Position numbers and translations under genes: made by a program. Under the pieces are notes generated by a model that made no database searches, was not told the DNA's origin, and was given only the letters and a program-made list of their open reading frames with translations. This document shows, one piece after another, positions 2,654 to 36,253 of a DNA stretch of 44,160 nt (positions within the stretch are counted from its first letter, which is position 1; each line of letters begins with the position of its first letter). The DNA is from a bacterium (GTDB taxonomy: Bacteria > Patescibacteriota > Minisyncoccia > Phycocordibacterales > Phycocordibacteraceae): the NCBI GenBank assembly GCA_021789225.1, contig JAJYJQ010000004.1, positions 1 through 44,160 of the forward strand, written 5' to 3'.

Positions 2654-2860
2654 ATTTCCCTCCGTTTTGGTTTTGAAGCAACGTGATTACTGGGCCACCC
2701 GGTTCGCCACAACAGAAAATGGCCGATGTGAGCCGCTTTCTGCTGTGGCGAACACCCTTCTCAAGGTGCTGTATTCTGGCTTAAAGCGTCTCAGATATTT
2801 GCCAAATTGTCAAGAGGAAGACGCGGAGCGGGTTTCGCGCGTGTTATCATCACAGCAACC

Positions 2861-5245
2861 ATGGAAAACACCGACGCCGTCTTGCAGCCGCTCTCGTTTG
2901 CGCAGCAGCTCGCGACCTACCGACGCATGGCGCTTGAAATCACCTACCTTATCGCGCGCAACGTCTTCATTCTCGTCAACATCATCATCTTCTCGGTCGT
3001 CGGCTTGCTCATCTATTTCGGCGACATGCGCGAGGGTCTCTCGCTCGCCGTGATCATCTCCATCAACATGGTGCTCGGCATCATCCAAGATGTGAACGCG
3101 TGGATCGTGCTCGAGCGCTTGCAAGTCCTCACCGCCATGCGCGTCACGCGCGTGCGCGCCGACGGCACGCGCGAAATCGTCTCACCGGAGGCGCTCGCCA
3201 AAGGCGACCGCATCGCACTCTCGCTCGGCGATACGGTGCCCTGCGACAGCACGCTCGCGGAGTCGCGCATGCTCGAGGTGAGCGAGTCAGTCATCACCGG
3301 CGAGTCTGCGTCCTTCCCCCGTGCGGTCGGCGAGCCGCTCCTGGCTGGCAGCGTCATCACGGCCGGCCACGGCATCGCCACCGCAGACACCACCTTCCGC
3401 GAAAGCCGCATCGCCAAGATGACCGCGCGCATCAAGCGCTACACCGTGAACGAAAGCCCTATCCAGCGCACGATCACCACCGTCGTCACCTACACGGGCT
3501 ATCTGCTCATCGCCGCCATCCTTTTCATCATCGCGCATGGTTCGCTCACGGGCGCACCGTGGGTGGACACGGTCAAGACCATCGGCGCGCTCTCGGCGGT
3601 GCTCGTGCCACAAGGGCTCGTGGTGGCAGCGACGCTCCTTTTCGCGTTCGGCGGCATCCACTTCTACCGCCGCCACGTGCTCCTGCGCGAAGCTAATGCC
3701 ACTGAAAAGCTCGCGCGCATCAAAAACCTCTGCGTGGACAAGACCGGCACGCTCACCGAAAACGCACTCACGGTCGAGACACTCATCGTGCCGGAAGGGG
3801 TAGAGCGCGCGCATGCCGAAACTCTCACTCGAGCCTACGTCGCCTCAAGCGATACCTCGGAACTCATGCGCTCCCTCGACGCATTCCTCGGCAAGAACGC
3901 AAACGAGCTTGAGATTCTCGGGGAGCTCCCCTTCTCGTCTTGGCGCCAGTATGGGGGCGCGCTGCTAGGCGACGCTGGTGCACCGGTCGCCGTGCTCGCC
4001 GGCACGCCCGAGGTCTTTACGCCGCACATGAGCGAGATACATCGCGCGTGGCTCATGGAAATCATCACGAAAGAAGCCGGTGCAGGCAAGAGGGTCTTCT
4101 GCCTCGTGCGCGACGAAGCTGCGAGTGCACTGCCGCAGACGCTTGAGGACACCGATGCGCGCCTTACGCCGCTCGCGGTCTTCGTGCTCACCAACCAGCT
4201 GCGAGAAGGCACGCGCGCGACTATCGATTTCTTCCAGGAGCGCGGGGTGCGTATCCGTGTGCTCTCGGGCGACAACACCGAAACCATCCAGGCCGTCACG
4301 CGCGCAGCGGGGATCAACCAACCGGACAAACTCATCACCGGCGCAGAAATGAGCGGCTGGACCCAAGCCGACTATGACGAACGCGCGAAAGACTACACCA
4401 TCTTCGCGCGTATCGTGCCCGAGCAGAAGGAGCACATCATCGACGCCCTAAAGAAAGACGGCTTCACCGCGATGGTCGGCGATGGCGCCAATGACGCGCT
4501 CGCCATCAAGAAAGCCGACGTGGGCGTGGCGATGTTCGATGGCACGCCGGCCACTCGGCAGATCGCCGCGGTCGTCCTCATGAGGAATAGCTTCGCCGAG
4601 CTCCCCGACGGCGTGCGTCTCGCCGACAGTATCATCGAAAATCTCTACCTCTTCGGCGCCGTGTTCATGAACCAGACCGCACTCGGCTTCTTCCTTTACG
4701 TCTTCCTCACTGCGCTCGCTCACCCCTTCCCCTTCTCGCCGCTCAATATCGCCTTCACCAGCTACTTCGCGATCGGCATCCCCAACATGCTCATCGGGTA
4801 CTGGGCGATACGTCCGGCAGGTGAGGTCGGCAAGGCAGGGGCGGAGTCTTTCGTGCGCAAAGTGTTCCCGTATGCGCTCACCTCGGGCGCTGTGGCGGCA
4901 CTGTTCCTCACCGGCATCTTGCTCATACCGACGAACGCTCTGGGTGCCGCGTCCGCAGCGACGCTCAGTGTGCTCGCGTTCGCGGTCTTGGGGTACCTGT
5001 TCTTCGTGATGGCGCCGCTGGCCTACAGCACGGCAAAGCGCCCGACGCGCGGCTGGGAGCTCCTAGGCGTGGGCGTCGGCGAGGTGGCGCTCGCTGCAGT
5101 CGTGCTCGCCATTCCATTCGCACGCACATTCTTTGACCTCACCCTCGTACCGCTCTACACCGTTATCTGGCTCGTGCCGGTCTTCTTCGGCTATGCCCTT
5201 ATCCAATATCTGCTCGCGCGTGGCTTCGCGCGCTATACGCGCTAA
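2861..5245 (+). CDS. P-type ATPase, CtpE-like cation transporter with PQGL in TM4
   Basis: TGES, DKTGTLT, LSGDN, GDGAND motifs and many TM helices; start placed at ATG 2861 after TGtTATCAT. Confidence 0.9.
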   Translation: MENTDAVLQPLSFAQQLATYRRMALEITYLIARNVFILVNIIIFSVVGLLIYFGDMREGLSLAVIISINMVLGIIQDVNAWIVLERLQVLTAMRVTRVRADGTREIVSPEALAKGDRIALSLGDTVPCDSTLAESRMLEVSESVITGESASFPRAVGEPLLAGSVITAGHGIATADTTFRESRIAKMTARIKRYTVNESPIQRTITTVVTYTGYLLIAAILFIIAHGSLTGAPWVDTVKTIGALSAVLVPQGLVVAATLLFAFGGIHFYRRHVLLREANATEKLARIKNLCVDKTGTLTENALTVETLIVPEGVERAHAETLTRAYVASSDTSELMRSLDAFLGKNANELEILGELPFSSWRQYGGALLGDAGAPVAVLAGTPEVFTPHMSEIHRAWLMEIITKEAGAGKRVFCLVRDEAASALPQTLEDTDARLTPLAVFVLTNQLREGTRATIDFFQERGVRIRVLSGDNTETIQAVTRAAGINQPDKLITGAEMSGWTQADYDERAKDYTIFARIVPEQKEHIIDALKKDGFTAMVGDGANDALAIKKADVGVAMFDGTPATRQIAAVVLMRNSFAELPDGVRLADSIIENLYLFGAVFMNQTALGFFLYVFLTALAHPFPFSPLNIAFTSYFAIGIPNMLIGYWAIRPAGEVGKAGAESFVRKVFPYALTSGAVAALFLTGILLIPTNALGAASAATLSVLAFAVLGYLFFVMAPLAYSTAKRPTRGWELLGVGVGEVALAAVVLAIPFARTFFDLTLVPLYTVIWLVPVFFGYALIQYLLARGFARYTR

Positions 5246-8536: not shown

Positions 8537-9030
8537 TCGCAGACCTTGTAGTCATACGAAGGCGGGAGCGGAATCGCAGCCTGACCGTCAACCAGTCCGG
8601 TGAAGAACTGGTTGGGGTCTTTGAACAGACGACTGTCGATGCGCTGCGAACGGGAGTTGTACTGCCCGACCAGATTGTTGCACACCTGCTTTGCGCCGGT
8701 GAGCTCGGTCATGCGGGCAGCCGCACGTTCGTCCGTATGCGCTTCGGCGTACGCCAAGTTCTCCTTCGCCATCTTGATGTTGGCGATCTGGGCTTGGATG
8801 CCGTTGTTGGCATCACGGAACCAGCGATAGTTCTCCAGCGCCGCATCCGGATCCATGACCTGGTTGACGACCCCGACGGCCGTATCAACCGGCCGGGTAA
8901 TGAGCCAGGAACCGAGACCGAGCAGCCACAGGACCAGCCCGATAACGAACATCGCTACAAGAAACGCGACTCCGTATCGGATGATGCTTCCCGACGCTTC
9001 GCGCGGGGACGGAAATCTACTTTCATTCAT
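8533..9030 (-). CDS. Membrane-anchored helical hypothetical protein
   Basis: GGAGG SD 7 nt before ATG 9030; one N-terminal TM helix then a helical domain (NYRWF...IQAQI...LVGQYNSRS). Confidence 0.7.
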   Translation of the reverse strand: MNESRFPSPREASGSIIRYGVAFLVAMFVIGLVLWLLGLGSWLITRPVDTAVGVVNQVMDPDAALENYRWFRDANNGIQAQIANIKMAKENLAYAEAHTDERAAARMTELTGAKQVCNNLVGQYNSRSQRIDSRLFKDPNQFFTGLVDGQAAIPLPPSYDYKVCE

Positions 9031-9110
9031 GCTCATTCCTCCGTAATTCAGTGTTTTTGTGAAGTTTGGCCTCTTTTTGCCAAACCAAGGTTTCAATGAA
9101 CTCCATGTAC

Positions 9111-9175
9111 ATATTACAGCGTATTTACACTTTGTCAATCTTCAAAATTGACTATTTTCCAGAGTCTGGCACACT
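9111..9175. promoter_or_regulatory. Back-to-back divergent sigma70-like promoters
   Basis: Minus: TTGACA(9138-9133)-16 nt-TAATAT; plus: TTGACT(9148-9153)-16 nt-CACACT preceded by TG. Confidence 0.45.
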
Positions 9176-9249
9176 GTACGCAGATGCTGTTGTTTTCATG
9201 AACGAGCGGGCAAGGGGCCTGCTCGAGAAAAATTGAGGGAGGAGAAACT

Positions 9250-9714
9250 TTGAAGAAGAAACTGTATCTGTACCCCTGGTTGGCGGAATACCTGCCGGAA
9301 GACCGCGAGGTAACCCAGTATTCCATCCGCTCAGAATCAGAGCTGCGGAGCCTGCTGGACCACTATCCCACTGAAACGCAGGAGATCAGACTCCTGGATC
9401 AAGCCGGGCACATCATTACGCGCCAGAGAAAATGGAGTCGGTTGGAGAAAATCTTTCTCAGGCCGCCAACGGAGGAGAAACTGCTCGAGGGTATTGTCCC
9501 CGCTGGACGACCTGTCCGCCGGGTTGTCCACTGTCTTGAACACAAGGCAGACCACATCCGCTACGTGCTCGTGACCGACACGACAACGGCAAAGGTGTAT
9601 GTCGTGCCCAAGGGCATCTTGCTCCGAGTTTGGCTTCAGGAACCTGAACCGGTCACAGTACCCGTCCGGATGAATACCCTGATTCCCTCCCCGGCAACCA
9701 CTCAAGCAAAGTGA
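9250..9714 (+). CDS. Hypothetical protein, paralog of 6726..7310
   Basis: GGAGG SD before TTG; similarity to the 6726 gene. Confidence 0.7.
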   Translation: MKKKLYLYPWLAEYLPEDREVTQYSIRSESELRSLLDHYPTETQEIRLLDQAGHIITRQRKWSRLEKIFLRPPTEEKLLEGIVPAGRPVRRVVHCLEHKADHIRYVLVTDTTTAKVYVVPKGILLRVWLQEPEPVTVPVRMNTLIPSPATTQAK

Positions 9715-9732
9715 TTGCCCCAAGCCCATCGG

Positions 9733-9776
9733 AAAGCTCTCCTGCATGAACACGCGTGTTCATGCAGGAGAGCTTT
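9733..9776. repeat. Perfect 44-bp palindrome (likely terminator)
   Basis: AAAGCTCTCCTGCATGAACACG|CGTGTTCATGCAGGAGAGCTTT with no spacer. Confidence 0.85.
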
Positions 9777-9840
9777 GTATTTTGTGCGGGCAGTGCAAAA
9801 CGCGCGCGGCGGAGCCGCGCGCGTGCGCTACACTACACGC

Positions 9841-11679
9841 ATGTCCTTCCGTCCGCATTCAGAGCGCGCCCAGGAAGCCGCGCCGTTCGCTGCTGGCATC
9901 CGTGCTCTTGCCCACCCGGCGTTTCGCCTGCCGCTTCTCGTGCTCGCGTCCAGTGCGCTCGGCGCTTCGTTCCAGCTGCCGCTCCTCTACCTCGTCGCGA
10001 TAGCCGTCGGCATCGGCGTCATCCTCGTACACTCGTACCACGAAGTGCGCGATGACAATTTCTCGCTCGATTACATCGCCTTCCTCGCGCTTATCGTGAG
10101 CGCGGCGACCGGCGAATACCTCGCGGGCGCGGTCGTCGCGCTCATGTTTACCGGCGGCGAAGCGCTCGAAGCCTACGCGAGTGCACGCGCCTCGCAGTCG
10201 CTCGAAGCGCTCCTCGCGCGCATCCCGAAGCGTGCCCTCGTGAAGATGGAGCGCGGAGCGACCCGCGAGATACCGCTCGCGAGCGTCCCGGAGGGCGCCA
10301 CCATCATCGTGCGTCACGGCGAGCTTGTCCCGCTCGACGGGCAGCTCCTCTCTGCGTCTGCGATCCTGAACACCACCAATCTCACCGGCGAAGCGCTTCC
10401 CGAAACGATCCAGAAGGGCGCGTTCGTCAAAAGCGGCAGCGTAAACGAAGGCGAAGCGATCGAGCTCTCGGTCTCGGGCACGCTCAAGACCTCCACCTAC
10501 CACCGCATCGTCTCGCTCGTCGCCGACGCCAAGCGCGACCAGGCGCCCTTGGTACGCATCGCGGATCGCGCAAACATCCCCTTCACCATCATCACGCTCG
10601 TGCTCGCCACGGGGACGCTCCTCTTCACGCACGATATGTCGCGCGCGCTTGCGGTGCTCGTCATTGCGACGCCCTGCCCGCTCATCATCGCCGCACCGAT
10701 CGCCTTCATCGGCGGCCTTTCGCGCGCGGCACGCGCGAATATCATCGTGAAGCATCCGGCCGCGCTCGAGGCGCTCGCGCGGAGCTCGAAGCTTTTTTTC
10801 GATAAGACCGGCACGCTCACGCTCGGCACGCCACGGCTCGCACGTATCACGCTCTCCGCGCCCGACGCGACAGAAGCAGACGCACTCGCCTATGCCGCCG
10901 CGGTCGAATTCCACTCCATCCATCCGCTCGCGCGCGCTGTCGCCGCAGCTGCTGAAGAACGTCAGGTGCCCGTGCGCGTCGCCGTCAATGTGATCGAACA
11001 CATCGGCAAAGGCATCCACGGCACGGTCGACGGGGTCTCCGTATCGCTCGCGCAAGCTGTACAACCGCACACAGCTGATGACGGCATTGCGCTCGCGCTC
11101 ACGGTGGCGGGCACGCACTACGCCACGCTCTTTTTCGCGGACGAGCTCAAGACCGATGCGCGCGCCCTCCTCGGGATGCTCTCGACGCAAGGGTTCGAGA
11201 CCGCTGTCTTTACCGGCGATACTCGTGCGCGAGCCGAACATGTCTTCGGCAAGCTCCCGCTCACGATCTATGCCGACTGCACGCCAGAAGAAAAATATGC
11301 TCTGGTCGAGCGGGCGCGCCGCGACGGGACGAAAGTCGCGGTCGTGGGCGACGGCTTGAACGATGCGCCCGCGCTCGCGCGCGCTGATGTGGGTATCGTC
11401 TTCTCCGGCACGGAAAACAGCGCCGCGATCGAGGCGGCGAGCATCGTCGTACTCGGTAGCAACCTGCGGCATATCAGCACGCTCCTGCGCATCGCGCGCC
11501 GCTCGCTCGCACTCGCGAAGCAGAGCATCGTCGTGGGAATCGGTCTCTCGGTCTTCGGGATGGTGCTCGCCGCTGCAGGCTTCATCACGCCGATCGCGGG
11601 GGCAGTCATCCAGGAAGTCATCGATGTTGTCGTGATACTGAATGCGCTGCGAAGCGCGGGCAGCGCGCGCGACGCGTAG
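9841..11679 (+). CDS. Heavy-metal P1B-type ATPase (TPCP/QExxD, P1B-5-like)
   Basis: TGEA, ATPCP, DKTGTLT, SIHPLA, TGD, GDGLND, IQEVIDVVVILNALR; start at ATG 9841 six nt after TACACT. Confidence 0.9.
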   Translation: MSFRPHSERAQEAAPFAAGIRALAHPAFRLPLLVLASSALGASFQLPLLYLVAIAVGIGVILVHSYHEVRDDNFSLDYIAFLALIVSAATGEYLAGAVVALMFTGGEALEAYASARASQSLEALLARIPKRALVKMERGATREIPLASVPEGATIIVRHGELVPLDGQLLSASAILNTTNLTGEALPETIQKGAFVKSGSVNEGEAIELSVSGTLKTSTYHRIVSLVADAKRDQAPLVRIADRANIPFTIITLVLATGTLLFTHDMSRALAVLVIATPCPLIIAAPIAFIGGLSRAARANIIVKHPAALEALARSSKLFFDKTGTLTLGTPRLARITLSAPDATEADALAYAAAVEFHSIHPLARAVAAAAEERQVPVRVAVNVIEHIGKGIHGTVDGVSVSLAQAVQPHTADDGIALALTVAGTHYATLFFADELKTDARALLGMLSTQGFETAVFTGDTRARAEHVFGKLPLTIYADCTPEEKYALVERARRDGTKVAVVGDGLNDAPALARADVGIVFSGTENSAAIEAASIVVLGSNLRHISTLLRIARRSLALAKQSIVVGIGLSVFGMVLAAAGFITPIAGAVIQEVIDVVVILNALRSAGSARDA

Positions 11680-11745
11680 CGTCGCGCGCCTCATGTGTGG
11701 AAAAGCGCGGCCGCTTCGCGGCCGCGCTGCTATTGTGTAGACATC

Positions 11746-12111
11746 ATGAACTCATCTCTCCTCGAGTTTCGCGACCACGAAGATCGCCCGTGGGGCTCGT
11801 TTGACCGATTCACGCGCGACGAGCTCTCGACAGTGAAAATCATCCGCGTTGCGCCGAGCAAGCGCCTCTCCCTCCAACGACACTCGCATCGCAACGAGTT
11901 CTGGCACATCATCTCCGGGAGCGGCACTGCCACCATAGACGAACACGAGACCGCCGTCGCCCCTGGGGACGAGTTTGAGGTGCCCGCACGCACGCTCCAC
12001 CGCCTCGCAGCCGGGCCGGAAGGCCTCTCCTTGCTCGAAATCGCCTTCGGCCATTTCGATGAAAACGATATCGAGCGCTTTGAAGACGACTTCGGCCGCA
12101 CCACCCCATGA
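11746..12111 (+). CDS. Cupin, mannose-6-phosphate isomerase type II C-terminal-like
   Basis: RPWGSF, LSLQRHSHRNEFW, HRL, EI..G.FDE.DIERFEDDFGR. Confidence 0.85.
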   Translation: MNSSLLEFRDHEDRPWGSFDRFTRDELSTVKIIRVAPSKRLSLQRHSHRNEFWHIISGSGTATIDEHETAVAPGDEFEVPARTLHRLAAGPEGLSLLEIAFGHFDENDIERFEDDFGRTTP

Positions 12112-13319
12112 TTCTCGTACTCCTCGCCAACGTCGTCGCGCTCTTCTTCTCTGCATTCGTCGCGGGCGTCCTTGTCGGCGTCCTCCTGATCCCGAGCGTA
12201 CGCCGCACGGTTGCAGATGTGCTCTCACACGTGGCGGAGCGCCTACGGAGACGACCGGCACTCCTCCTCGCGCGCCCGACCGGCAAACCGATTCTCACGC
12301 CGCGCGCAAATCTCTGGGAAGACCAGGCGGTGCTGAATCCTGCCGCGCTCGACCTGGGTGGGCGCGTGCACCTCATCTATCGTGCCATCGGACGCGACGG
12401 CGTCTCGCGCTTCGGCTACGCGAGCAGCGCTGACGGATTCACGTTCGACCAGATCCTTCCCTATCCTGTGTTCGCGGTGCGCAATCCAGGCGGCCCGGGC
12501 GCCATACGACGCTACTCGCCCGTGCTCTACCCCTCCGGCGGCTCCTGGGGCGGCGCCGAAGACCCGCGCATGGTCGCCATAAACGGCCGCGTGTACGTGA
12601 CCTTCAACCTGTTCGATAACTGGCAAATGCGTGTCGGTTACATTTCACTAAGCGAAGAAGATTTCCTCGCGCACCGCTTCGAGCGTTGGGAGGGACCGTT
12701 TTATATCTCAGGCGGCAATCAGAACAAAAGCAACTCGCCTCTCTCGAGCAAGAATCGCGATAAGAACTGGACGCTCTTCCCTGAGAAAATCAATGGTGAG
12801 TTCGCGGTCCTCCATACAGTCATCGACGAAGACCCCAACCGTGTCCGCATCGAATACACCGACGCTTTGGAAACACTGCCCGAGAGAGAGTTCGATACCA
12901 TCGATCCGCAGAAAGTCCCTGATCAGCCGATCGCCTGGCACATCCACGTGCGGAGCGCCGGCCCGCCGCCGCTCAAGACACCCTATGGCTGGCTCGTGTT
13001 CTATCACGCTTCCTCACAAGATGAACCGCACATCGGCTACAAGCTCGGCGCAATGTTGCTCGATCTCGAGGATCCCACGAAAATCCTCCACCGTGCACCG
13101 CACCCGATTCTCGAACCGGATATGCCGTATGAAAATACCCATAAAGCTGTCGTCTATGCGTGCGGCGCATTGGTACGGGATGACCTCTTGTTTGTCTATT
13201 ATGGCGGTGGCGACCATATCGTTAGTGTCGCTACCGCACCCCTTGAAGAGTTTCTCCAAGCGCTCATGCGCGACGAAGCCCCCTCGCTCGCGACCGAGCC
13301 GCTTACCCGAGCCGCATAG
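12108..13319 (+). CDS. GH130 beta-mannoside phosphorylase/hydrolase-like, with N-terminal membrane anchor
   Basis: VLNPAA, YRA, GAEDPR, DKNW.LFPEKING, GPPPLKT..GWL, VVYACG, YYGGGD; ATGA overlap with the cupin gene. Confidence 0.85.
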   Translation: MILVLLANVVALFFSAFVAGVLVGVLLIPSVRRTVADVLSHVAERLRRRPALLLARPTGKPILTPRANLWEDQAVLNPAALDLGGRVHLIYRAIGRDGVSRFGYASSADGFTFDQILPYPVFAVRNPGGPGAIRRYSPVLYPSGGSWGGAEDPRMVAINGRVYVTFNLFDNWQMRVGYISLSEEDFLAHRFERWEGPFYISGGNQNKSNSPLSSKNRDKNWTLFPEKINGEFAVLHTVIDEDPNRVRIEYTDALETLPEREFDTIDPQKVPDQPIAWHIHVRSAGPPPLKTPYGWLVFYHASSQDEPHIGYKLGAMLLDLEDPTKILHRAPHPILEPDMPYENTHKAVVYACGALVRDDLLFVYYGGGDHIVSVATAPLEEFLQALMRDEAPSLATEPLTRAA

Positions 13320-13325
13320 CCTCGT

Positions 13326-15293
13326 ATGTTTACCGTCCGCCGCGAACCCGCCAACCCTATACTCTCCCCGCGCCGCGAGCACCCCTGGGAGGCAGTCGCC
13401 ACATTCAATCCTTCCGCCGTCCGTACGGAAGACGGCACGCGCATCTTTTATCGTGCCATGGGCAATCCGAACGCGCTCACGACGCCACACGCGAGCCTCT
13501 CGACCATCGGCACCGCGTTTGCCGAAGACAGCGTGCATTTCCATTCGCGCCGCCAGGTCATCATACCGACCGAGCCATGGGAGCAGTACGGCTGCGAAGA
13601 TCCGCGCGCGACCTTTTTCGAGGGCAAGTGGTACGTCTTCTACACCGCGCTCGGCGGCTATCCTTTCGGGCCGGACAATATAAAGGTGGCGGTCGCGGTC
13701 GGCGAGAACCCGGAGCATCTCGACGAGCACCATCTCGTCACCCCTTTCAATGCCAAAGCCGCGACGCTCTTCCCCGAGCGCATCGATGGCGACGTCGTCT
13801 TGATGCTCACCGCCCACACCGACTGGACGGCCGAATATCCGCGCCCTACTATCGGCATCGCACGAGCGAAGCGCATCGAGGAGTTCTGGGACAGTGCCTT
13901 TTGGGAACGCTGGCATGCCGAGCTTCCGCAGCACGCGCTCGCCGAGCTCAGGCGCGCTGACGACGACCACATGGAGGTCGGTGCGACCCCGCTCAAGACC
14001 GAGCAGGGCTGGCTCCTCATCTATTCCTACATCCAGCACTACTACGACGAACACCACCGCACGTTTGGCATCGAAGCAGCGCTCCTCGACCTGCAAAACC
14101 CGCAACGGCTCATCTCGCGCACGTACCCCTTCCTCGTCCCCGAAGAGGTGTATGAGCAGTACGGGCTTGTCCCCCACATCGTTTTTCCTTCCGGCGCGAC
14201 CGTCCACGACGACACGCTCGAGGTGTGGTACGGCGCTGCCGACACGGTTTGTGCTAAAAGTTCCATCCGCCTCCCCGATCTTCTGCGCGCGCTCGACCCA
14301 GCGCGCCCCGCACGCACCCTCACGCGCGCCGAAGAGAATCCGATCCTCGAGCCGCGCGGAAACGGCTTTGAGGAAGCGGCCGTTTTCAATCCTGCCGCGC
14401 TCGACCTCGACGGTTCCGTACACATTTTTTATCGCGCCATGGGCAGCGATAACACCTCGGTCATCGGCTACGCACGCTCCGAGGACGGCATTCATGTCAC
14501 CGAGCGCCTCACCGAGCCTGTGTATGTACCGCGCGCTGAGTTTGAGCAGAAGAAAGGCGACTCGCACGGCAACTCCGGCTGCGAAGACCCGCGCCTCGCG
14601 GTAATCGGCGATCGCCTCTACATGACCTACACCGCCTACGACGGCGTGCGTCCGCCGCGCGGTGCAGTCACCTCGATCTCGCTCGACGACTTCCGCGCGC
14701 GCAGCTTCGACCGCTGGGACCTGCCGGTGCTCATTACGCCAGACAACGTGGATGACAAGGACGTCGGCTTGCTTCCCGAGCGTATCGGCGAAAATTTCCT
14801 GCTCTACCACCGCATCGCAAACCGCATCTGCGCAGACCTCCTTCCCGACCTCGCACAAGGCAAACGCGTCTCGCGCTGCATCGAGATCATGGGGCCGCGC
14901 GAGGGCATGTGGGATTCTGCGAAGGTCGGCATCGCCGCACCACCACTCAAGGTCGAAGATGGTTGGCTTTTGATTTACCATGGTGTCTCACATCGCGGAC
15001 GTTATCGCCTGGGCGCGGCACTCCTCGACACAGACGGCATAACGCTCCTCGCGCGCACCGCCGACCCCATCTTCGAGCCAGTCGAACCCTACGAACAAAG
15101 CGGCACGATTAACAATGTCGTTTTTGCCTGCGGCGCCGTCGCACGCGGCGATACGCTCTTTGTGTACTATGGCGGCGGCGACCGTGTCGTCGGCGTCGCG
15201 ACTGGGAGCGTGAGCCACATCCTGCGCGCGCTGCGCGCAGATGAGCGTCGCCCATATGCCATCCCAACATACTCTCCCCATGTCACTACCTGA
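13326..15293 (+). CDS. Tandem two-domain GH130 protein
   Basis: Two repeats of NPIL.P...FNP.A...YRAMG...GCEDPR...GWLLIY...VF..GA...YG..D. Confidence 0.85.
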   Translation: MFTVRREPANPILSPRREHPWEAVATFNPSAVRTEDGTRIFYRAMGNPNALTTPHASLSTIGTAFAEDSVHFHSRRQVIIPTEPWEQYGCEDPRATFFEGKWYVFYTALGGYPFGPDNIKVAVAVGENPEHLDEHHLVTPFNAKAATLFPERIDGDVVLMLTAHTDWTAEYPRPTIGIARAKRIEEFWDSAFWERWHAELPQHALAELRRADDDHMEVGATPLKTEQGWLLIYSYIQHYYDEHHRTFGIEAALLDLQNPQRLISRTYPFLVPEEVYEQYGLVPHIVFPSGATVHDDTLEVWYGAADTVCAKSSIRLPDLLRALDPARPARTLTRAEENPILEPRGNGFEEAAVFNPAALDLDGSVHIFYRAMGSDNTSVIGYARSEDGIHVTERLTEPVYVPRAEFEQKKGDSHGNSGCEDPRLAVIGDRLYMTYTAYDGVRPPRGAVTSISLDDFRARSFDRWDLPVLITPDNVDDKDVGLLPERIGENFLLYHRIANRICADLLPDLAQGKRVSRCIEIMGPREGMWDSAKVGIAAPPLKVEDGWLLIYHGVSHRGRYRLGAALLDTDGITLLARTADPIFEPVEPYEQSGTINNVVFACGAVARGDTLFVYYGGGDRVVGVATGSVSHILRALRADERRPYAIPTYSPHVTT

Positions 15294-18200
15294 CTGCATA
15301 GTCTTCGACCTCGACAGCACGCTTGCCAAAAGCAAGCAGCCGATCGAGCCTGCGATGGCGGCAGCGCTCACCCGACTCCTCGCACGCATCAAGATCGCCG
15401 TCATTTCGGGCGGGAAGCTTGAGCAGCTTACGAAGCAAGTCGCTGACCGGCTGCCTCCGCACGCCGCGCGCGGAAATCTTTTCCTGCTCCCCACCTCCGG
15501 TGCCGCGCTCTACGCATATCGCACCGGCACCTGGACGCGCATATACCAAGAGGCGCTCTCACCCGACGAAGCAGCGAGCATACGTGCCGCGCTTCTTTCC
15601 GCAAACGAAGAGACCCACACGGTCGATTTCGGCACACCCGCACACGGCGAGCGCATCGAGTTCCGCGGCTCGCAGGTTTCATTCTCTGCGCTCGGGCAAG
15701 AGGCACCGCTTGCAGAAAAGCTTGCATGGGACCCGACGCGCGCGAAGCGCGAAGCGCTTCGCGCGGCACTCGAAGCGCGCCTGCCCGGATTCGAGGTGCG
15801 CATCGGCGGCACCACGACCATCGACATCACCAAGAAAGGTATCGACAAGGCGTATGGCGTCCGCCGGCTCTCCGAGCACCTGCACGTGCCCATCGACCGC
15901 ATGGAATATGTGGGCGACCAGCTTTACGAGGGAGGCAACGATGCGGTCGTCACGGCGACCGGCATCCCTACGCACGCTGTCACCGACCCCACGGACACGC
16001 TTCAGTACCTCACGCCTCTCCTCGCGCGCGCACCAGTAGCGCCGTCGCAGGGCCAGACCGGCCTCACGACAGCCGAGGCGCGACTCATCCGCGAGAAGGT
16101 CGGCGCGAACGTGCTCGAAGAAGCGCGTCCGGGCGTGTTCGGGAAATTCGTCTCGTGGACACTCACGCCGATTTCGCTGATGCTCGTGGCCGCGGCAGCG
16201 CTTTCGTTTGCTGCCGGCAAGATTCCCGATGGCTGGTTGACTCTTTTCCTCTTCGCAGCGAATTTCGGCATCCGCCTCTGGCACGAAGGCAAAGCCGATC
16301 ACGCCATCGCGAAGCTCCAGGAGAACCTCGCCGTCTCCTGCCGCGTGGAGCGCGATGGAGATTGGCAGAAGCTCCCTGCGACCGAACTCGTCCCGGGCGA
16401 CCTCGTCATGCTGTCGGTCGGTGCCATCGTGCCGGCGGACGCGACCGTACTCACCCAGACCAATCTCTCACTCAATGAGTCGATGCTTACCGGGGAGTCG
16501 CTTCCGCGCGAGCGCAGTGTCGGCGAGACGCTCTACTCCGGCTCATTCGTCGCGACCGGCAACGCGCTCGCCCTCATAACTGCCACCGGTACGCGCACCT
16601 ACTTCGGCAAGACGCTCGCTTCCGTCGAGCACGCCAAGAAACGCAGCGCGCTCGAAACGGACATCCTCTCGATCTCGCGCTTCCTTTCCATCTTCTCGCT
16701 GGTCGCCATCGCTATCCTCTCTGTCGTTCTGTTGCAGAATGCGAGCACCAAACTCATCGAGATCGCGACCCTCGACCTTTCGCTCCTCATCGCCGGCATC
16801 CCGGTCACGCTCCCGACAGTCATGAGCCTCATCATCAGCGTCGGCGTCCTCGAACTCGCCAAGCAGCGAGCCGCTGTGCGTCGCCTCTCCTCGCTCGAAG
16901 ACCTCGCCAATGTCGACCTCCTCCTTACCGATAAGACCGGTACGCTCACGGAAAACCGCATCACGGTCGATCGCGTGCTCGTGCTCGAGGGACAAGACGA
17001 ACGAGACGTCCTCGAGCTCGCCGTTTCTGCCACCGACCCCGCCGAAGGAAACGCGCTTGAGGACGCCGTCATCACGAGCGCACGTGCCGCGCTCGCCGCT
17101 CGCTTGCCACAGTCCTCCTTCACGCCAGGCGATTCGGAGCGCAAGCGGAGCACAGCCATCGTGACGCGCGCGGGCGTGCCATGGGTCGTCACGCTCGGGG
17201 CCCCGAGCACCGTGCGCGCGCTGTGCGATTTCCGCTCCGTCGACCTGGCGAAACGCTTTGACGAAGCGGTAGCGGAAGCAGCGGCGCGCGGCGACCGCGC
17301 GCTCGCGGTCGCCGCGCGCGAGGGCGCGCACGAAGCAGGCCTCAGGCCGATCGGTCTTCTTTTCCTCGCAGACACGCTCCGTGCCGACGCGAAGGAAACT
17401 ATCGCCGCCATGCGCGACCAAGGCATCACCGTCAAGATGCTCACCGGGGACGATGCCGCGATCGCTCGCCAAGTCTCGCATACGCTCGGGCTCGAAGGCG
17501 ACATCGCATCACGCACCGTCTTCGACTCATCACAAGCCCTCGACGCAGCATTCGAACAGGCTGCCGGATTCGCCAACGTACTCCCGGAAGACAAATACCT
17601 TGCCGTCGAACAAGCGAAAAAATCGCATGTCGTCGCCGTGACAGGCGATGGCGTGAACGACGTCCCGCCCGTCAAAGCGGCCGATGTCGGCATCGCCGTG
17701 AAGAACGCGGTGGACGCGCTGCGCTCGACCGCCGATATCGTCCTCCTCACGAACGGCATCGCGGTCGTGCAAGACGCCATCATCGAGGCGCGGAAAGTCT
17801 TCTCGCGCGTCTATCACTACTCGGTCTACCGTATTTCCGAGAGCTCGCGCCTCATCCTCACGATCGGCATCATCGGCGTCGTGGCGGGTGACTATCCGCT
17901 CACGCCCATACAGATCATCCTCCTCGCGCTCTTGAACGACATCCCCATCGTCTCACTCGCCTTTGATCGCGTCCACGCGCCACGTGTACCCGCCACCATC
18001 GACGTGAAGCGCCGCTTCCTCCTGGGCACGGTCTACGGCTTCACCGGCGTCTTAAACAGCGTGCTCATGCTCTGGCTCGCGCTCTCCGTCCTTCACCTGC
18101 CGTGGCCACAGATCCAGACGCTCTTCTTCTTGAAGCTCGTCGTCTCCGGCCACCTGCTCATCTATATCGCACACACCGACCACCGCTGGTTCCGCTTCCT

Positions 18201-18435
18201 CCCGAGCTGGCAGGTCATCACCGCTGTCACCGCGACACAGCTCCTGGCGACCGCCTGGGCGCTCTCCGGCCTCTTTACTGCCGCCATCCCGTTCTGGGTC
18301 GCGGCGTTCGTGTGGGTATGGGCCTTCTTCTGGATGCAGACTGCCGAGCTCGGCAAGATGCTCGTTGCCCGCGCCGCCAAGCCGAAACAAGCCTCCATGG
18401 AGCTCGCAGTTGCCGCGCTCGCGCGCGAGGCGTAG
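15280..18435 (+). CDS. Fusion of HAD-IIB phosphomannomutase-like domain and P3A-type H+-ATPase
   Basis: N-terminal FDLDSTL, ISGG, IEFRG, IGGTTTIDIT.KGIDK, GD..YEGGND; C-terminal GLT..EA, TGES, IPV.LP, DKTGTLT, MLTGD, GDGVND, YRI (TM5), LLND (TM6); single frame; upstream ATGs at 15241 and 15256 are possible. Confidence 0.85.
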   Translation: MSLPDCIVFDLDSTLAKSKQPIEPAMAAALTRLLARIKIAVISGGKLEQLTKQVADRLPPHAARGNLFLLPTSGAALYAYRTGTWTRIYQEALSPDEAASIRAALLSANEETHTVDFGTPAHGERIEFRGSQVSFSALGQEAPLAEKLAWDPTRAKREALRAALEARLPGFEVRIGGTTTIDITKKGIDKAYGVRRLSEHLHVPIDRMEYVGDQLYEGGNDAVVTATGIPTHAVTDPTDTLQYLTPLLARAPVAPSQGQTGLTTAEARLIREKVGANVLEEARPGVFGKFVSWTLTPISLMLVAAAALSFAAGKIPDGWLTLFLFAANFGIRLWHEGKADHAIAKLQENLAVSCRVERDGDWQKLPATELVPGDLVMLSVGAIVPADATVLTQTNLSLNESMLTGESLPRERSVGETLYSGSFVATGNALALITATGTRTYFGKTLASVEHAKKRSALETDILSISRFLSIFSLVAIAILSVVLLQNASTKLIEIATLDLSLLIAGIPVTLPTVMSLIISVGVLELAKQRAAVRRLSSLEDLANVDLLLTDKTGTLTENRITVDRVLVLEGQDERDVLELAVSATDPAEGNALEDAVITSARAALAARLPQSSFTPGDSERKRSTAIVTRAGVPWVVTLGAPSTVRALCDFRSVDLAKRFDEAVAEAAARGDRALAVAAREGAHEAGLRPIGLLFLADTLRADAKETIAAMRDQGITVKMLTGDDAAIARQVSHTLGLEGDIASRTVFDSSQALDAAFEQAAGFANVLPEDKYLAVEQAKKSHVVAVTGDGVNDVPPVKAADVGIAVKNAVDALRSTADIVLLTNGIAVVQDAIIEARKVFSRVYHYSVYRISESSRLILTIGIIGVVAGDYPLTPIQIILLALLNDIPIVSLAFDRVHAPRVPATIDVKRRFLLGTVYGFTGVLNSVLMLWLALSVLHLPWPQIQTLFFLKLVVSGHLLIYIAHTDHRWFRFLPSWQVITAVTATQLLATAWALSGLFTAAIPFWVAAFVWVWAFFWMQTAELGKMLVARAAKPKQASMELAVAALAREA

Positions 18436-18444
18436 TTATACACA
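18436..18444 (+). promoter_or_regulatory. Single DnaA-box-like 9-mer
   Basis: TTATACACA matches TTATNCACA; similar single boxes at 24675-24683 and 36831-36839. Confidence 0.3.
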
Positions 18445-18595
18445 CCCGCAACATTGCATCCTTGTGCTGTTTATGTCATACTCACGATAACTCGCAGTGT
18501 CTCTTGAGCTTTGCGGCCCTCGTGCCCCAGAAGCGTTCGGTACCCGGCGAGGGTTATCAAGTTCACAGCCATTTTCAAGCAATGCTTTCACAATG

Positions 18596-18698
18596 GTGCG
18601 CTTCTGAATTTCGAGCGAGAAACGAGTCGGAACGCGAAGTGTATCCGAGATACATTGAGCGTGAGACGAGGTTTCGCAGCCGAAATTCAGAAGCGCAC
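18596..18698. repeat. 103-bp palindromic element (family A) upstream of the RRM gene
   Basis: Perfect 18-bp inverted repeat GTGCGCTTCTGAATTTCG/CGAAATTCAGAAGCGCAC enclosing the TGTATC-cga-GATACA hairpin. Confidence 0.8.
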
Positions 18699-18736
18699 GT
18701 GGAATGATTGATTGAGAAGGGCGTTACTACGCATCC

Positions 18737-19072
18737 ATGCAAGAAAACAAGAAGAAGCTCTTTGTCGGCGGTATCCCGTGGGCCTCGACAGAAGAGGACG
18801 TCCGCAAGGCGTTCGAGGAGGCTGGCACCGTCGTTTCGGTGAGCCTTCCGATCGACCGCATGTACAACCGCCCGCGCGGTTTCGGTTTCGTCGAAATGGC
18901 GACCGAGGCAGAAGCGCAGGCAGCAGTCGAGCGCTGGGACGGAAAGGATTTCGGCGGTCGCACCCTTAAGGTGGACTTCGCTCGCCCGGAGAGCGAGCGC
19001 CCGCCTCGCGAGAATCGCGGTGGTGGTCGCGGCGGCTTCGGCGGCGATCGTGGCGGCTACGGCAGCTACTAA
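18737..19072 (+). CDS. RRM RNA-binding protein with Gly-rich tail
   Basis: RNP2 LFVGGI, RNP1 RGFGFVEM, RGG-rich C-terminus. Confidence 0.95.
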   Translation: MQENKKKLFVGGIPWASTEEDVRKAFEEAGTVVSVSLPIDRMYNRPRGFGFVEMATEAEAQAAVERWDGKDFGGRTLKVDFARPESERPPRENRGGGRGGFGGDRGGYGSY

Positions 19073-19075
19073 TCT

Positions 19076-19121
19076 CCCCAAAAGAAAAAGACCCTCACCC
19101 GAGGGTCTTTTTCTTTTGGGG
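19076..19121. terminator. Bidirectional terminator between convergent genes
   Basis: CCCCAAAAGAAAAAGACCCTC-accc-GAGGGTCTTTTTCTTTTGGGG, 21-bp stem. Confidence 0.85.
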
Positions 19122-19125
19122 ATGG

Positions 19126-19584
19126 TTACGCAAGGTGCGGATGGTGAAGCGGCTGCTCCCTATCGTGTTCCGGCGTCTGCGCCTGTGCACCACCGAGGCG
19201 CTGCTCAAGACGCACGAGGAGCGAGCCGATTGACGCAAGCGCCAGGATGAGGATGACGAACCACGCATAGGATGTCGCGAAGTACGCGAGCACGATGACG
19301 AGCGCCGCCCAGAGAGTCGCTGTGCGTCGGCTCTGAGCCATCATGCCGAGCGTTGAGCGGAGCGAATACGGCTCGGCGTTCTGAGTCCATGCCCGCGCAC
19401 GAGCAGACACGCTGTCGCGCATGCACAGCCGCGCTAGCTGATGTGTCGCGAAGGCCATGAGCACGAAGTCACCGAGCGGCACCCACGTCGCGAGCGCGTG
19501 TGCATCAGCGAGAAGCGTGATGCCCGCGAGCAAGGCGGACACGTACAGAAGGCCGAAGAAAAATCCCCAAAAATGAAAACGCAT
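19126..19584 (-). CDS. DUF1360-like membrane protein
   Basis: D..L..FAT..L.RL...D.V....R pattern then TM helices; start at ATG 19584 after TACACT. Confidence 0.55.
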   Translation of the reverse strand: MRFHFWGFFFGLLYVSALLAGITLLADAHALATWVPLGDFVLMAFATHQLARLCMRDSVSARARAWTQNAEPYSLRSTLGMMAQSRRTATLWAALVIVLAYFATSYAWFVILILALASIGSLLVRLEQRLGGAQAQTPEHDREQPLHHPHLA

Positions 19585-29664: not shown

Positions 29665-31137
29665 CTACAAATCCGTTCCCGAGTAGGAGAGATTGAGGCT
29701 TTTGTTGCAGAGCGGGAAATCGGGGACGATGTTGCCGGGGCCGAGCTCGCCGAAGAGCGGCCAGTTCGTGAAGGACGGGTCGGTAATGACGAGACGATCG
29801 ATGCGGCCGTTCGCGTCGAGCGCGAGCCAGTCGAGGACCATGCCGCGCCACGATTCATTCCACCCATACGCGCTTCCCTTCCCACTGCCGAGCACGGCGA
29901 GGGTGTCGCCTTCGGGCAGCGTGTCGAGCACGGCGCGGATGAGGCGGATAGACTCTGCGCTCTCGCGGGCACGCACGCGGAAGCGTGCGGCGACATCGCC
30001 TGCCTTTTCCGTGACGAGCTCTGGCGCGTGCTCTGCGTACCCTGCGTACGGGAGGTCGAGACGTGCGTCGGCCGCGATGTTGGAGGCGCGGGCCGCGAGG
30101 CCGCGCGCGCCGTAGGCACGCGCGGCTGCTTCAGAGAGCACGCCTGTGGTCTCGAAGCGCTCCATGAGACCGTCATTGGTGAACGCGATGTCGAGGATCG
30201 TCTGCAGCTCACGCTCGATGCGCGCGAGCACCGTGCGGATCGTATCGCTGGCCTCGTCGCCGATGTCGTGCGCGCCGCCCAGCACGACCGCGCCGCGCAA
30301 GAAACGGTGCCCGACGAGCGACTCGTGCATGCGCCGCAGCTCTTCCACGAGCCGGAAGCCCTGCGCCGCCATGAAGGAGAAGCCGGTGCCGTTGCCGGCG
30401 ATGTTCCCCATATCGAAAATATGCGCCGTGAGCCGCTCGAGCTCGTTCCAAAGAACGCGCAGCGCCTTCGTGCGCGCACTCACGGCCGTGCCGGTCGCGC
30501 GCTCGACCGCTTCCGCAAACGCGAGCGTGTGCCCCACCACCATGTCGCCCGAGATACGCTCGACAAACGGGAACGCATCTTTCGGCGTCTTTCCCTCGAC
30601 GAGCTTCTCGACGCCTTTATGTTTGAAGAACAGCTTCCCTTCGAGCGAGAGGATGCGCTCGCCGCGCACATTGAAGCGGAAGTGCCCCGGCTCGATGATG
30701 CCAGCGTGGATCGGCCCGACCGGAATCTCGTAGATGCCCTTCCCTTCGACGGCGTGCATCGGATACGGTTCGTTCGCCACCGGGAGCTTCGTGTTCCAAG
30801 TGAAATCTTTGCGGAGCGGATGCGTATCAGCCGGAATATTCTCATGGTGCACGAGGCGGCGCAGGTCCGGGTGCCCGACCGGCTCGATGCCGAACTGGTC
30901 ACGGATAAGCCGCTCAAACCAGTGCGCAGCCATGACAAGCCGCGTCACCGAAGGATACGACGGATCGTTCTCGGGAAGCTCGGACTCCAGCGTGAGGAAG
31001 CCGTCCGCCGCCTGCAAGGCCGCGCGCACGACGAAGCCGCGCTTCGCGGTGCGTTCATCCGTCGCATAGAGCAGAGCGAGCGGCGCGTCGTCTTTCACGA
31101 GTGTCTGTACCTGCTTGGCAAATGCCTCACGCGGCAC
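29665..31137 (-). CDS. hyfG: Ehr/hydrogenase-4 large-subunit-like protein (NuoC+NuoD-like) without NiFe ligands
   Basis: WFER...D.FGI...GHPD.RRL, PLRKDF, VGPIHAGIIEPGHFRF, ERISGD (for RxCGxC), C-terminal DFPLCNKSLNLSYSG.DL; start uncertain. Confidence 0.88.
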   Translation of the reverse strand: MPREAFAKQVQTLVKDDAPLALLYATDERTAKRGFVVRAALQAADGFLTLESELPENDPSYPSVTRLVMAAHWFERLIRDQFGIEPVGHPDLRRLVHHENIPADTHPLRKDFTWNTKLPVANEPYPMHAVEGKGIYEIPVGPIHAGIIEPGHFRFNVRGERILSLEGKLFFKHKGVEKLVEGKTPKDAFPFVERISGDMVVGHTLAFAEAVERATGTAVSARTKALRVLWNELERLTAHIFDMGNIAGNGTGFSFMAAQGFRLVEELRRMHESLVGHRFLRGAVVLGGAHDIGDEASDTIRTVLARIERELQTILDIAFTNDGLMERFETTGVLSEAAARAYGARGLAARASNIAADARLDLPYAGYAEHAPELVTEKAGDVAARFRVRARESAESIRLIRAVLDTLPEGDTLAVLGSGKGSAYGWNESWRGMVLDWLALDANGRIDRLVITDPSFTNWPLFGELGPGNIVPDFPLCNKSLNLSYSGTDL

Positions 31138-31211
31138 GGAGGCGCCATCGACTCGGAGAGTGCGAGGCCGTGATCACGACTGAGTTGAGCGATAGTCTTC
31201 GACATAGCAGG

Positions 31212-32690: not shown

Positions 32691-33331
32691 AAATCGTTAA
32701 GGGCTTGCAGATAATCAGTTGTCGCAGACGCATGCGTCTCCTGCACACGTCGAATGAGCGCCGTCGCGAGCACGAGGAGCGCGAGCAGGTCGAAGAGCAC
32801 GCCAATTTCGACGAAGAGCGGCATCTGCTCGGCCACCGTGAGCCCCAGGAAGAAGACCCCGTTCTCGAGCATCAGGAAGCCGACGCTCTGGCCGAAGAGA
32901 CTCTTATGAGAGACGAGGAGCTCGAAGCCGATGAGCACGAGCGAGAACGAGACCGCCACCGGGAAAAGCTGATGATCGACCACGAGAACGCGCGCGAGCG
33001 CGACGGCCGCACCGATCGCCGCCATAGCAATGAACGTGAGCGTCGCCGGGCGGACATAGAGCGCAAGCCGCTCCGCTGCCCCGCTCTTCTTCGCTATGGA
33101 AAGAAGCATGGAGGGCATCACGGCGACTTTCAGCACGCACACGAGCGCGGCGATGAGCACCAGGTGTGCCTCGCCGAACTGCCACGCCGACCACAGCAGG
33201 TATGCGACGAGCGCGCACGCCTGAACGCGGAAAAGCTGCACGAGCGTGCGCAGCCGGGTGCGGCTCGGAAGCAGGAACGCCGACGCAAGAATGAGCGCCG
33301 CGATGAGTGAAAGTGGTCCGATCGTAGTCAT
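32687..33331 (-). CDS. hyfE: Membrane subunit HyfE-like
   Basis: Hydrophobic; K....P..L, Q.VGFLMLENG, P..VEIGVLFD. Confidence 0.85.
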   Translation of the reverse strand: MTTIGPLSLIAALILASAFLLPSRTRLRTLVQLFRVQACALVAYLLWSAWQFGEAHLVLIAALVCVLKVAVMPSMLLSIAKKSGAAERLALYVRPATLTFIAMAAIGAAVALARVLVVDHQLFPVAVSFSLVLIGFELLVSHKSLFGQSVGFLMLENGVFFLGLTVAEQMPLFVEIGVLFDLLALLVLATALIRRVQETHASATTDYLQALNDL

Positions 33332-33335
33332 AGGA

Positions 33336-36238: not shown

Positions 36239-36253
36239 AAGAGGTATGAGAGC

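Follow-up and report, generated by a model that had tools for sequence, protein, structure and literature searches.

The locus described here raises the question of whether one polypeptide can hold both a phosphomannomutase (PMM)-like enzyme and a complete P3A-type H+-ATPase, how the two came to be joined, and whether the joining couples sugar metabolism to proton pumping. It lies in a window of 44,160 nucleotides (nt), the whole stretch of DNA that was analysed (positions 1 to 44,160 of contig JAJYJQ010000004.1, assembly GCA_021789225.1), from a member of Candidatus Kaiserbacteria (Patescibacteria, or candidate phyla radiation, CPR). The source genome (782 kb, 98.5% complete) is called G000, and G-numbers in general denote genomes of the same family (n = 259). 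The lineage that bears the fusion is a soil and mine-water bacterium with a tiny genome. The fusion is genuine and represents a new domain architecture for a P-type ATPase, although both of its modules are of well-known kinds. In our judgement it is probably a young, deletion-born fusion of two co-expressed modules that work independently of each other.

The forward strand contains a single uninterrupted open reading frame (ORF) at 15241..18435, encoding 1064 amino acids (aa); residue numbers below follow this 1064-aa frame unless stated otherwise. Its parts are as follows.

15280..18435, forward strand: fused ORF, 1051 aa from ATG 15280, the frame being open from ATG 15241.
15280..16029, forward strand: HAD-IIB alpha-phosphohexomutase module (PMM/alpha-phosphoglucomutase type), residues 14-263, nucleophile D23, predicted from profiles, the match to structure 4BND and motifs.
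16030..16059, forward strand: linker APVAPSQGQT, residues 264-273.
16060..18435, forward strand: P3A-type (plasma-membrane H+) P-type ATPase, residues 274-1064, predicted from profiles, the alignment to Pma1 and motifs.

The start codon is likely ATG 15280 (residue 14), which is favoured because the mutase genes of relatives begin at an equivalent ‘MPDC’; the same start is seen in P0002, a second full-length fusion discussed below. With this start the ORF overlaps the TGA (15291-15293) of the upstream gene GH130b by 14 nt. The initial annotation had described one uninterrupted ORF, and no internal stop is present from either ATG (1064 or 1051 aa); the motif scan also recovers, in place, every motif and the linker that it had quoted.

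The N-terminal module was recognised by Pfam Hydrolase_3 (PF08282, residues 20-227, 60.8 bits, cut-off 20.9), Pfam PMM (PF03332, residues 40-261, 44.1 bits, cut-off 22.4) and the NCBIfam HAD-IIB model TIGR01484 (71.1 bits, cut-off 41.8). Its best full-length solved relative is the alpha-phosphoglucomutase (alpha-PGM) of Lactococcus lactis (4BND, E 1.5e-39, residues 6-249 of 255), with further matches to PMM1, PMM2 and parasite PMMs (E 1e-14 to 1e-9). The sequence motifs are DLDSTL (23-28), IEFRG (139-143), IGGTTTIDI (188-196) and GDQLYEGGND (225-234, motif IV). D23/D25/T27, S56, K203 and D226...D234 align with the corresponding residues of 4BND, in columns that are invariant in 19 orthologues, and we take them to be HAD motifs I (DxDxT), II, III and IV; the module agrees with the solved mutases in having its cap inserted between motifs II and III. 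This agrees with the earlier assignment to the eukaryotic-PMM/HAD-IIB kind. A screen for the classical phosphohexomutase family PF02878 gave no match in the 98.5%-complete G000, whereas all 14 control genomes matched. The fused ORF is the sole PF03332 match in G000, and among the 14 control genomes PF03332 matched only Lactococcus lactis, which has a HAD-type alpha-PGM. The fused mutase is thus the only PMM-type mutase of its genome. A passage of PMC8808168 describes HAD-type PMMs as typically bifunctional PMM/PGM enzymes activated by glucose-1,6-bisphosphate.

The remainder of the protein is a full-length pump. Pfam places Cation_ATPase_N at residues 270-322, E1-E2_ATPase at 364-542 and Hydrolase (the P-domain) at 559-815, and the NCBIfam equivalog for P3A proton pumps, TIGR01647, matches residues 274-1007 over model positions 1-753 of 755 (622.6 bits, cut-off 615.5). 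The catalytic motifs TGES (417), DKTGT (564-568, with D564), TGD (735) and GDGVND (802) are all present, as are the ion-site motifs VYRI (862-865) and LLND (897-900). In the alignment to yeast Pma1 (7VH5, E 4.9e-104) these two stretches fall on Pma1 VYRI and FAD, which presumably hold R695, the Arg of transmembrane helix 5 (TM5), and D730, the TM6 Asp. The pump has all catalytic and proton-site residues, and it is predicted to transport protons. The reading of a full P3A pump with TM5 Arg (YRI) and TM6 Asp (LLND) is borne out by TIGR01647 and the Pma1 alignment, and so is that of two aspartyl-phosphate HAD-type sites in one polypeptide (D23 and D564). G000 also encodes catalytic subunits of F/V-type ATPases.

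The two modules meet cleanly. The linker, of 9-10 residues, sits after the stop position of the relatives' mutase genes and before the conserved ‘GL(S/T)’ of the N-terminal helix of the pump. In the relative G012 the mutase ends in ‘...LLKHA’ and a stop codon and the pump begins with ‘MTPSDAPHLPEPAGLSS’, while the window reads ‘...LLARA-PVAPSQGQT-GLTT...’; the junction-spanning stretch of the fused product is ...LLARAPVAPSQGQTGL... Hence the mutase is complete but for its stop codon, and the pump to which it is joined lacks only a few residues at its start. Read directly, the junction holds no in-frame ATG, GTG or TTG from residue 254 until a GTG at residue 291, which makes separate initiation of the pump implausible. 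A TAG in the +1 frame (16037-16039) lies directly 3' of a GC-rich run, GCGCGCGC (16024-16031). In an AlphaFold2 model of the 1051-aa protein (36-row alignment, mean predicted local distance difference test score, pLDDT, 81.3) both modules are predicted to fold confidently around a low-confidence linker, with block means of 80-93 for the mutase, ten long helices with pLDDT mostly 75-92 for the pump half, and pLDDT below 50 for residues 250-258 of the 1051-aa numbering. The N-terminus of a P-type ATPase is cytoplasmic, so the topology of the fusion is compatible.

Support for the junction comes from assembled contigs, compared by contig alignment. A contig from a different study (X2, 4310 nt) aligns to 15289-18431; it differs by 23 mismatches and by two indels at 16514/16521 that compensate each other, and has neither a stop nor an indel at the junction. 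A further contig from another study (X3, 434 nt) bridges 15831-16264, again without an indel at the junction; none of the X4 fragments bridges 16012-16125. P0002 (1049 aa, from a 6098-nt contig) is 98% identical, has the identical mutase-pump architecture, and its substitutions (R49C, E178A, A179P, V316L, SV to ER, A1045T) are those of the X2 contig. The initial annotation had proposed looking for a stop and a start near 16020-16060; the independent contigs contain no stop there, and the pump has no in-frame start. It had also held that two separate genes in close relatives would point to a recent stop loss or an assembly error. The first part of this holds, in that mutase and pump are separate genes in close relatives, which makes the fusion recent; assembly error is excluded by the independent contig from another study.

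Neither half appears to be decaying. In the mutase, 47 of the 47 columns that are invariant in the other 18 orthologues are kept, and in the pump 181 of the 182 columns invariant in the other 17 pumps (the exception being I334T); leaving out each other row of these alignments in turn gave 0-4 changes. In the pump tree the fused pump has a branch length of 0.16, against a median of 0.16. Differences between the strains amount to 12 synonymous versus 5 non-synonymous codon changes and one compensated frameshift, divided between the mutase (4 synonymous, 3 non-synonymous) and the pump (8 and 2, plus the frameshift), although these are small numbers. The frameshift, in the X2 and X3 strains, combines one inserted and one deleted nucleotide, 6-7 nt apart (16514-16521), which changes SV to ER and keeps the frame; it lies in the A-domain region of the pump.

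How rare the arrangement is was assessed in three collections. With residues 1-330 as query against 5.8 billion protein clusters (lengths 585-1862), 12 matches were obtained, one of which, P0002, has pump domains; the other 11 join the mutase to FAD-linked oxidase domains (9), class I aldolase (1) or GH130 (1). A junction query (residues 121-480) against 1.84 billion representatives gave 29,035 matches at E <= 0.001, and none of the best 150 of these matched both halves. An HAD-IIB N-terminus was absent from all 14 long or N-extended pump matches that were scanned; among these 14 were one with an AAA-kinase-like N-terminus, one with an HlyD C-terminus and one with a LysM C-terminus. When a 180-aa junction query was run against the 259 family genomes, an uninterrupted match to positions 1-180 was seen, among the matches listed, in G000 only, and G070 and G086 matched 1-180 with one internal TAA. 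Literature searches on P-type ATPase-phosphomannomutase fusions and on P3A H+-ATPases in CPR bacteria listed no report of this fusion. The architecture, which the initial annotation had not recognised as standard, was thus found in the clusters, representatives and genomes in one species-level lineage only, to which the fusion is confined, and no recurrence in independent lineages was found there.

Other fusions of the same HAD-IIB mutase module do occur. The FAD-linked oxidase fusions (PF01565 and PF02913, 9 clusters, 807-859 aa) are C-terminal, as is the fusion to GH130 (P0012), while that to class I aldolase (P0011) is N-terminal. Long open frames of 805-902 aa are present in seven genomes of the genus (G003, G173, G183, G234, G043, G112 and G237). 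The mutase module thus appears fusion-prone in CPR bacteria at its C-terminus, and the nine oxidase fusion clusters together with the seven long frames suggest that C-terminal additions to it are tolerated.

Gene order in the relatives shows what the two halves were before they were joined. Pump orthologues of the same genus are 49-73% identical, begin at query residue ~265-272 and have no mutase domain. Apart from G000, 11 species have a mutase gene 5' of the pump and on its strand, with GH130b immediately before the mutase in 10 of the 11 (the exception being G004) and a mannose-6-phosphate isomerase (PMI) gene at the head of the cluster in four (G012, G235, G213 and G055). G235 also has the genes that lie downstream in the window, for an RRM-protein and a methyltransferase. 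Between mutase and pump, eight species (G012, G235, G213, G055, G056, G054, G081 and G004) carry a gene for a membrane protein of ~140 aa:

L025:5523-5942 (G235), L022:5736-6152 (G056), L013:4265-4684 (G012), and others: small membrane protein.

The remaining three species (G070, G086 and G079) have no such gene and a minimal spacer. The junction in G070 (L019) and G086 (L020) is TAA, 12 nt and a GTG start in the same reading frame, a near-fused state in which a single stop codon separates the two frames; in G079 it is TGA, 20 nt and ATG. In three relatives, mutase and small protein are set apart by genes that look by sequence like a SIS-domain phosphoglucose/phosphomannose isomerase and a ROK-family sugar kinase; these share the strand of their neighbours in G213 (L026) and G055 (L027) and are inverted in G012 (L013 4685-6602).

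The small protein (‘MNHNLRELAK...HYGWGIKLPVR...SFHF’, 33 invariant columns in 12 sequences) matches no Pfam family (best match E 0.25) and belongs to a family of at least 179 clusters, all unnamed, nearly all of whose named sources are Paceibacterota/Patescibacteria. Its gene was not found in G000, G070, G086 or G079, in a search whose positive control, G056, was found. A profile of 12 members matched 53 of the 259 family genomes, with full-length proteins in 40 and half-length ones in 13, G000 not among them; the half-length relatives are open frames of 70-84 aa in 12 genomes and, in G138, a frame of 101 with one stop. The gene stands immediately upstream of the pump in 17 genomes checked. 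A role as strict pump subunit was considered and rejected, since seven genomes have the small protein after the mutase but lack a P3A pump in the next 4.5 kb, and in three genomes a pump has neither the mutase nor the small gene adjoining. No longer, fused form of the small protein was found among 8000 candidates, which is weak evidence. The predicted complex of the G235 small protein with its ATPase scored 0.00, which gives no verdict and was not used as evidence.

These gene orders suggest an origin. The ancestral order would have been [PMI]-GH130a-GH130b-mutase-small membrane protein-ATPase, and in the G000 lineage a deletion would have removed the stop codon of the mutase, the small membrane protein gene and the start codon of the pump, leaving the full-length mutase, ~9 residues and the cytoplasmic N-terminus of the pump. 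Judged from gene order, the route may have been such a single deletion. The pump tree places G000 as sister to a clade that mostly retains the small gene (support 95/98 with 15 rows, 86/88 with 24 rows), five of whose seven sampled members (G235, G012, G053, G213 and G055) have it directly upstream of the pump, while the trio G070/G086/G079 sits in the other major pump clade, among carriers of the small gene. An approximately unbiased (AU) test rejects a grouping of G000 with the trio (p-AU 2.9e-75), a group that was named after the first tree had been seen. It follows that the small gene disappeared on at least two occasions, each of which would have brought mutase and pump together; in G000 stop and start would also have gone, either then or by a later small change. 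We conjecture that a small slip closed the last gap, as hinted by the +1-frame TAG that follows the GCGCGCGC run. The fusion is young and local, and it offers a dated, step-by-step example of gene fusion through loss of an intervening gene, with relatives that show the intermediates, from small gene present, through a tight arrangement with an in-frame stop, to fused.

What the mutase does is best approached from the genes that precede it, all in the window.

11695..12111, forward strand: cupin-type PMI, first gene of the operon (PF01050, 76.3 bits).
12108..13319, forward strand: GH130a, mannoside phosphorylase/hydrolase family (PF04041, 108 bits).
13326..15293, forward strand: GH130b, 655 aa with two tandem GH130 domains (PF04041, 288.9 bits, two stretches).

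PMI, GH130a, GH130b and mutase genes overlap or abut. The PMI has orthologues in the same position in G012, G235, G213 and G055, and in those loci of relatives where GH130b has a full-length match, its orthologue (60-77% identical) immediately precedes the mutase gene. For the GH130 proteins the nearest NCBIfam model is beta-1,2-mannobiose phosphorylase, below cut-off (for GH130b, NF052550 at 384.6 bits against 450). According to PMC4264767, the product of GH130 phosphorylases is alpha-mannose-1-phosphate, from which PMM and PMI make fructose-6-phosphate. By this scheme the mutase would turn the alpha-mannose-1-phosphate (Man-1-P) from the two GH130 enzymes into mannose-6-phosphate (Man-6-P), and the PMI of the operon would carry it on to fructose-6-phosphate. 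Because the operon otherwise has no such step and the genome no PF02878, the mutase is the predicted missing middle step of the PMI-GH130-GH130 operon, its substrates following from this context.

Some features of the operon stand apart from this argument. The N-terminus of GH130a is hydrophobic (MILVLLANVVALFFSAFVAGVLVGVLLIP), which hints at a signal or an anchor in the membrane and would be unusual in a phosphorylase of the cytoplasm. A GC-rich hairpin with an 11-bp stem and a T-containing tail (11704-11728, forward strand) lies inside the 5' end of the PMI ORF, which leaves the PMI start uncertain; it is possibly the terminator of the preceding gene, marking the true 5' boundary of the sugar operon. 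Scans of 9000-19500 gave one promoter-like site (shuffle mean 1.7) and 11 terminator-like sites (7.8 +/- 2.8 in shuffles), neither above shuffles; the hairpins at 11704-11728 and 9733-9776 alone stood out.

Three other explanations bear on the protein itself. The N-terminal module might be a Cof-like HAD-IIB sugar-phosphate phosphatase held at the membrane, for example releasing mannose or making a compatible solute; HAD-IIB includes many phosphatases, and Hydrolase_3 outscores PMM (60.8 vs 44.1 bits). The best full-length solved relatives are mutases, however, and none of the 17 solved-structure matches is a phosphatase. The GD-x4-GGND motif and the IEFRG arginine, which we take to be typical of PMMs, are conserved in all 19 orthologues. 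The restriction of PF03332 to Lactococcus lactis among the control genomes argues the same way, as do the operon's want of another Man-1-P to Man-6-P step and the absence of PF02878, and we think a phosphatase improbable. An artefact (faulty assembly or sequencing) or a dying gene (one partner inactivated by a stop loss of very recent date) could draw on the GCGCGCGC run, where a 1-nt error before the +1-frame TAG would restore the mutase stop, and on the two genes of close relatives. It has to contend with the unbroken junction in X2 and X3, with P0002, with a pump that has no start codon of its own, with strain differences that are mostly synonymous in both halves, with intact conserved columns and with the mutase being the only one of its type in the genome. 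This explanation is largely refuted and scarcely credible.

The initial annotation had suggested instead that sugar-phosphate flux regulates the pump or is mechanically coupled to it. In such a scheme a sugar (bis)phosphate would close the mutase cap, and the short linker would alter the movement of the A-domain and so tune proton export. The ~9-residue linker does join directly to the Cation_ATPase_N helix, the pump adjoins the sugar operon in at least 12 species, and tight or fused mutase-pump arrangements arose at least twice; elsewhere among P-type ATPases, P1B pumps have sensor domains at the N-terminus that bind metals, and the P3A pumps of plants and fungi are controlled through their termini. 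Yet recurrence of the tight arrangement is not evidence of selection, since any clean loss of the small gene juxtaposes mutase and pump. The fusion occurs in one species only, a separate gene stands between the two in eight, and neither an interface nor a fusion-specific residue pattern is evident, the invariant columns (47/47 and 181/182) being unchanged. No support was found for regulation or mechanical coupling, the mutase being explained as the missing step of the operon, and we regard it as unlikely. What survives of the idea is co-expression: at least 12 species of the genus have conserved the pump gene as downstream neighbour of the sugar operon, which makes co-expression of sugar catabolism and proton pumping plausible. 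The fusion informs on co-expression, not necessarily on contact.

The reading we prefer is thus that of a recent deletion that joined two neighbours. Both modules would keep working independently after fusion; the fusion would tether a cytoplasmic mutase to the membrane and fix 1:1 co-expression of mutase and pump, products of an operon whose genes would have been transcribed together even before. The pump is a presumed proton-exporting P3A ATPase whose gene, in this genus, normally closes the same cluster. Several points weigh against it. The mutase substrate (mannose versus glucose phosphates) is a prediction; GH130 specificity is likewise predicted, every NCBIfam score being below cut-off, and the pump passes the TIGR01647 cut-off by just 7 bits. 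Contig-level support leaves low-frequency junction variants possible, and only two or perhaps three strains, closely related to one another, lend independent support; next to none of the window's words occurred in two metatranscriptome runs from the source study, which are not informative on expression. As to origin, a stepwise loss, in which the small gene went before the stop codon (the first step being the one seen in G070/G086/G079), is equally possible, and the pump tree need not equal the species tree. Finally, a 28-kDa domain on a 9-residue linker beside the rotating A-domain could impair or modulate the pump.

The wider context may outweigh the fusion itself. A large CPR genus has a mannoside-phosphorolysis operon whose members include a proton pump and a conserved but unnamed membrane protein, which hints that in these uncultured, minimal fermenters proton export is turned on along with one particular sugar pathway. 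More speculatively, and in our view doubtfully, the Kaiserbacteria mutase, the small protein as adaptor and the P3A pump might form one membrane module linking mannoside phosphorolysis to proton export. If so, loss of the adaptor would have been compensated by translational coupling (G070/G086/G079) or by covalent fusion (G000), and the fusion would be a natural ‘Rosetta stone’ for a metabolon that, in a minimal fermentative cell, pairs a proton pump with an enzyme of glycolytic entry.

In the window as a whole, a span of 16 kb holds three P-type ATPase genes (2807-5245, 9715-11679 and 15280-18435). Besides the P3A fusion, one is a P1B heavy-metal pump (TIGR01525, 418 bits), and another passes only the general P-type model (best subfamily TIGR01525, 204 bits, cut-off 346). 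A hairpin with a 20-bp stem and 9 G-C pairs (9733-9776, forward strand) lies just inside the start of the P1B ATPase ORF. On the reverse strand, 29665-36778 encodes a fused NuoC/NuoD-like protein (Complex1_30kDa and 49kDa, with a weak NiFe-hydrogenase match), a NuoB-like protein and two Mrp/NuoL-type antiporter subunits, in a region of strong AT skew (0.28-0.38). By its domains this cluster looks like a group-4 membrane-bound hydrogenase or an Mrp-type complex, which is unexpected in a 0.78-Mb CPR genome.

Compared with known systems, the mutase module shares full-length similarity over ~250 aa with Lactococcus lactis alpha-PGM (4BND) and the eukaryotic-type PMMs (PMM1/PMM2 and parasite enzymes, PF03332), and the 4BND alignment and motif scan give the same DxDxT, Ser and Lys motifs and GD-x4-GGND. 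The known members are soluble and stand alone, whereas that of the window is the N-terminal domain of a membrane pump. Its setting resembles the GH130 mannoside-phosphorolysis pathway of anaerobes as set out in passages of PMC4264767, in that the window encodes a PMI, two GH130 proteins and a PMM-type mutase. The anaerobe clusters described in those passages have a classical phosphohexomutase and ABC transporters, whereas the window's cluster has a HAD-type mutase and ends with a proton pump; that of the relatives, unlike them, also includes the small membrane protein.

On the pump side, the prokaryotic P3A clade treated in part of PMC9708826 is one system for comparison. Yeast Pma1 (7VH5) and Arabidopsis AHA2 (5KSD) are others, which the window pump resembles in scoring above the TIGR01647 cut-off, in having TGES, DKTGT, GDGVND and, by alignment to Pma1, the TM5 Arg and the TM6 Asp, and in the ten long helices of its model. 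It has neither the N-terminal extension of the fungal pumps nor the C-terminal R domain of the plant pumps, and carries a 250-aa N-terminal enzyme instead; it also has Arg at the position that we take to be Pma1 H701. A P3A pump thus appears to tolerate a 28-kDa enzyme on a 9-residue N-terminal tether. In P1B heavy-metal ATPases a soluble cytoplasmic domain is also fused to the N-terminus of a P-type ATPase, so such cargo is tolerated there too. Their N-terminal domains, however, presumably bind the transported ion and are ancient and widespread, whereas that of the window is a metabolic enzyme with no relation to the ion transported, and is restricted to one species.

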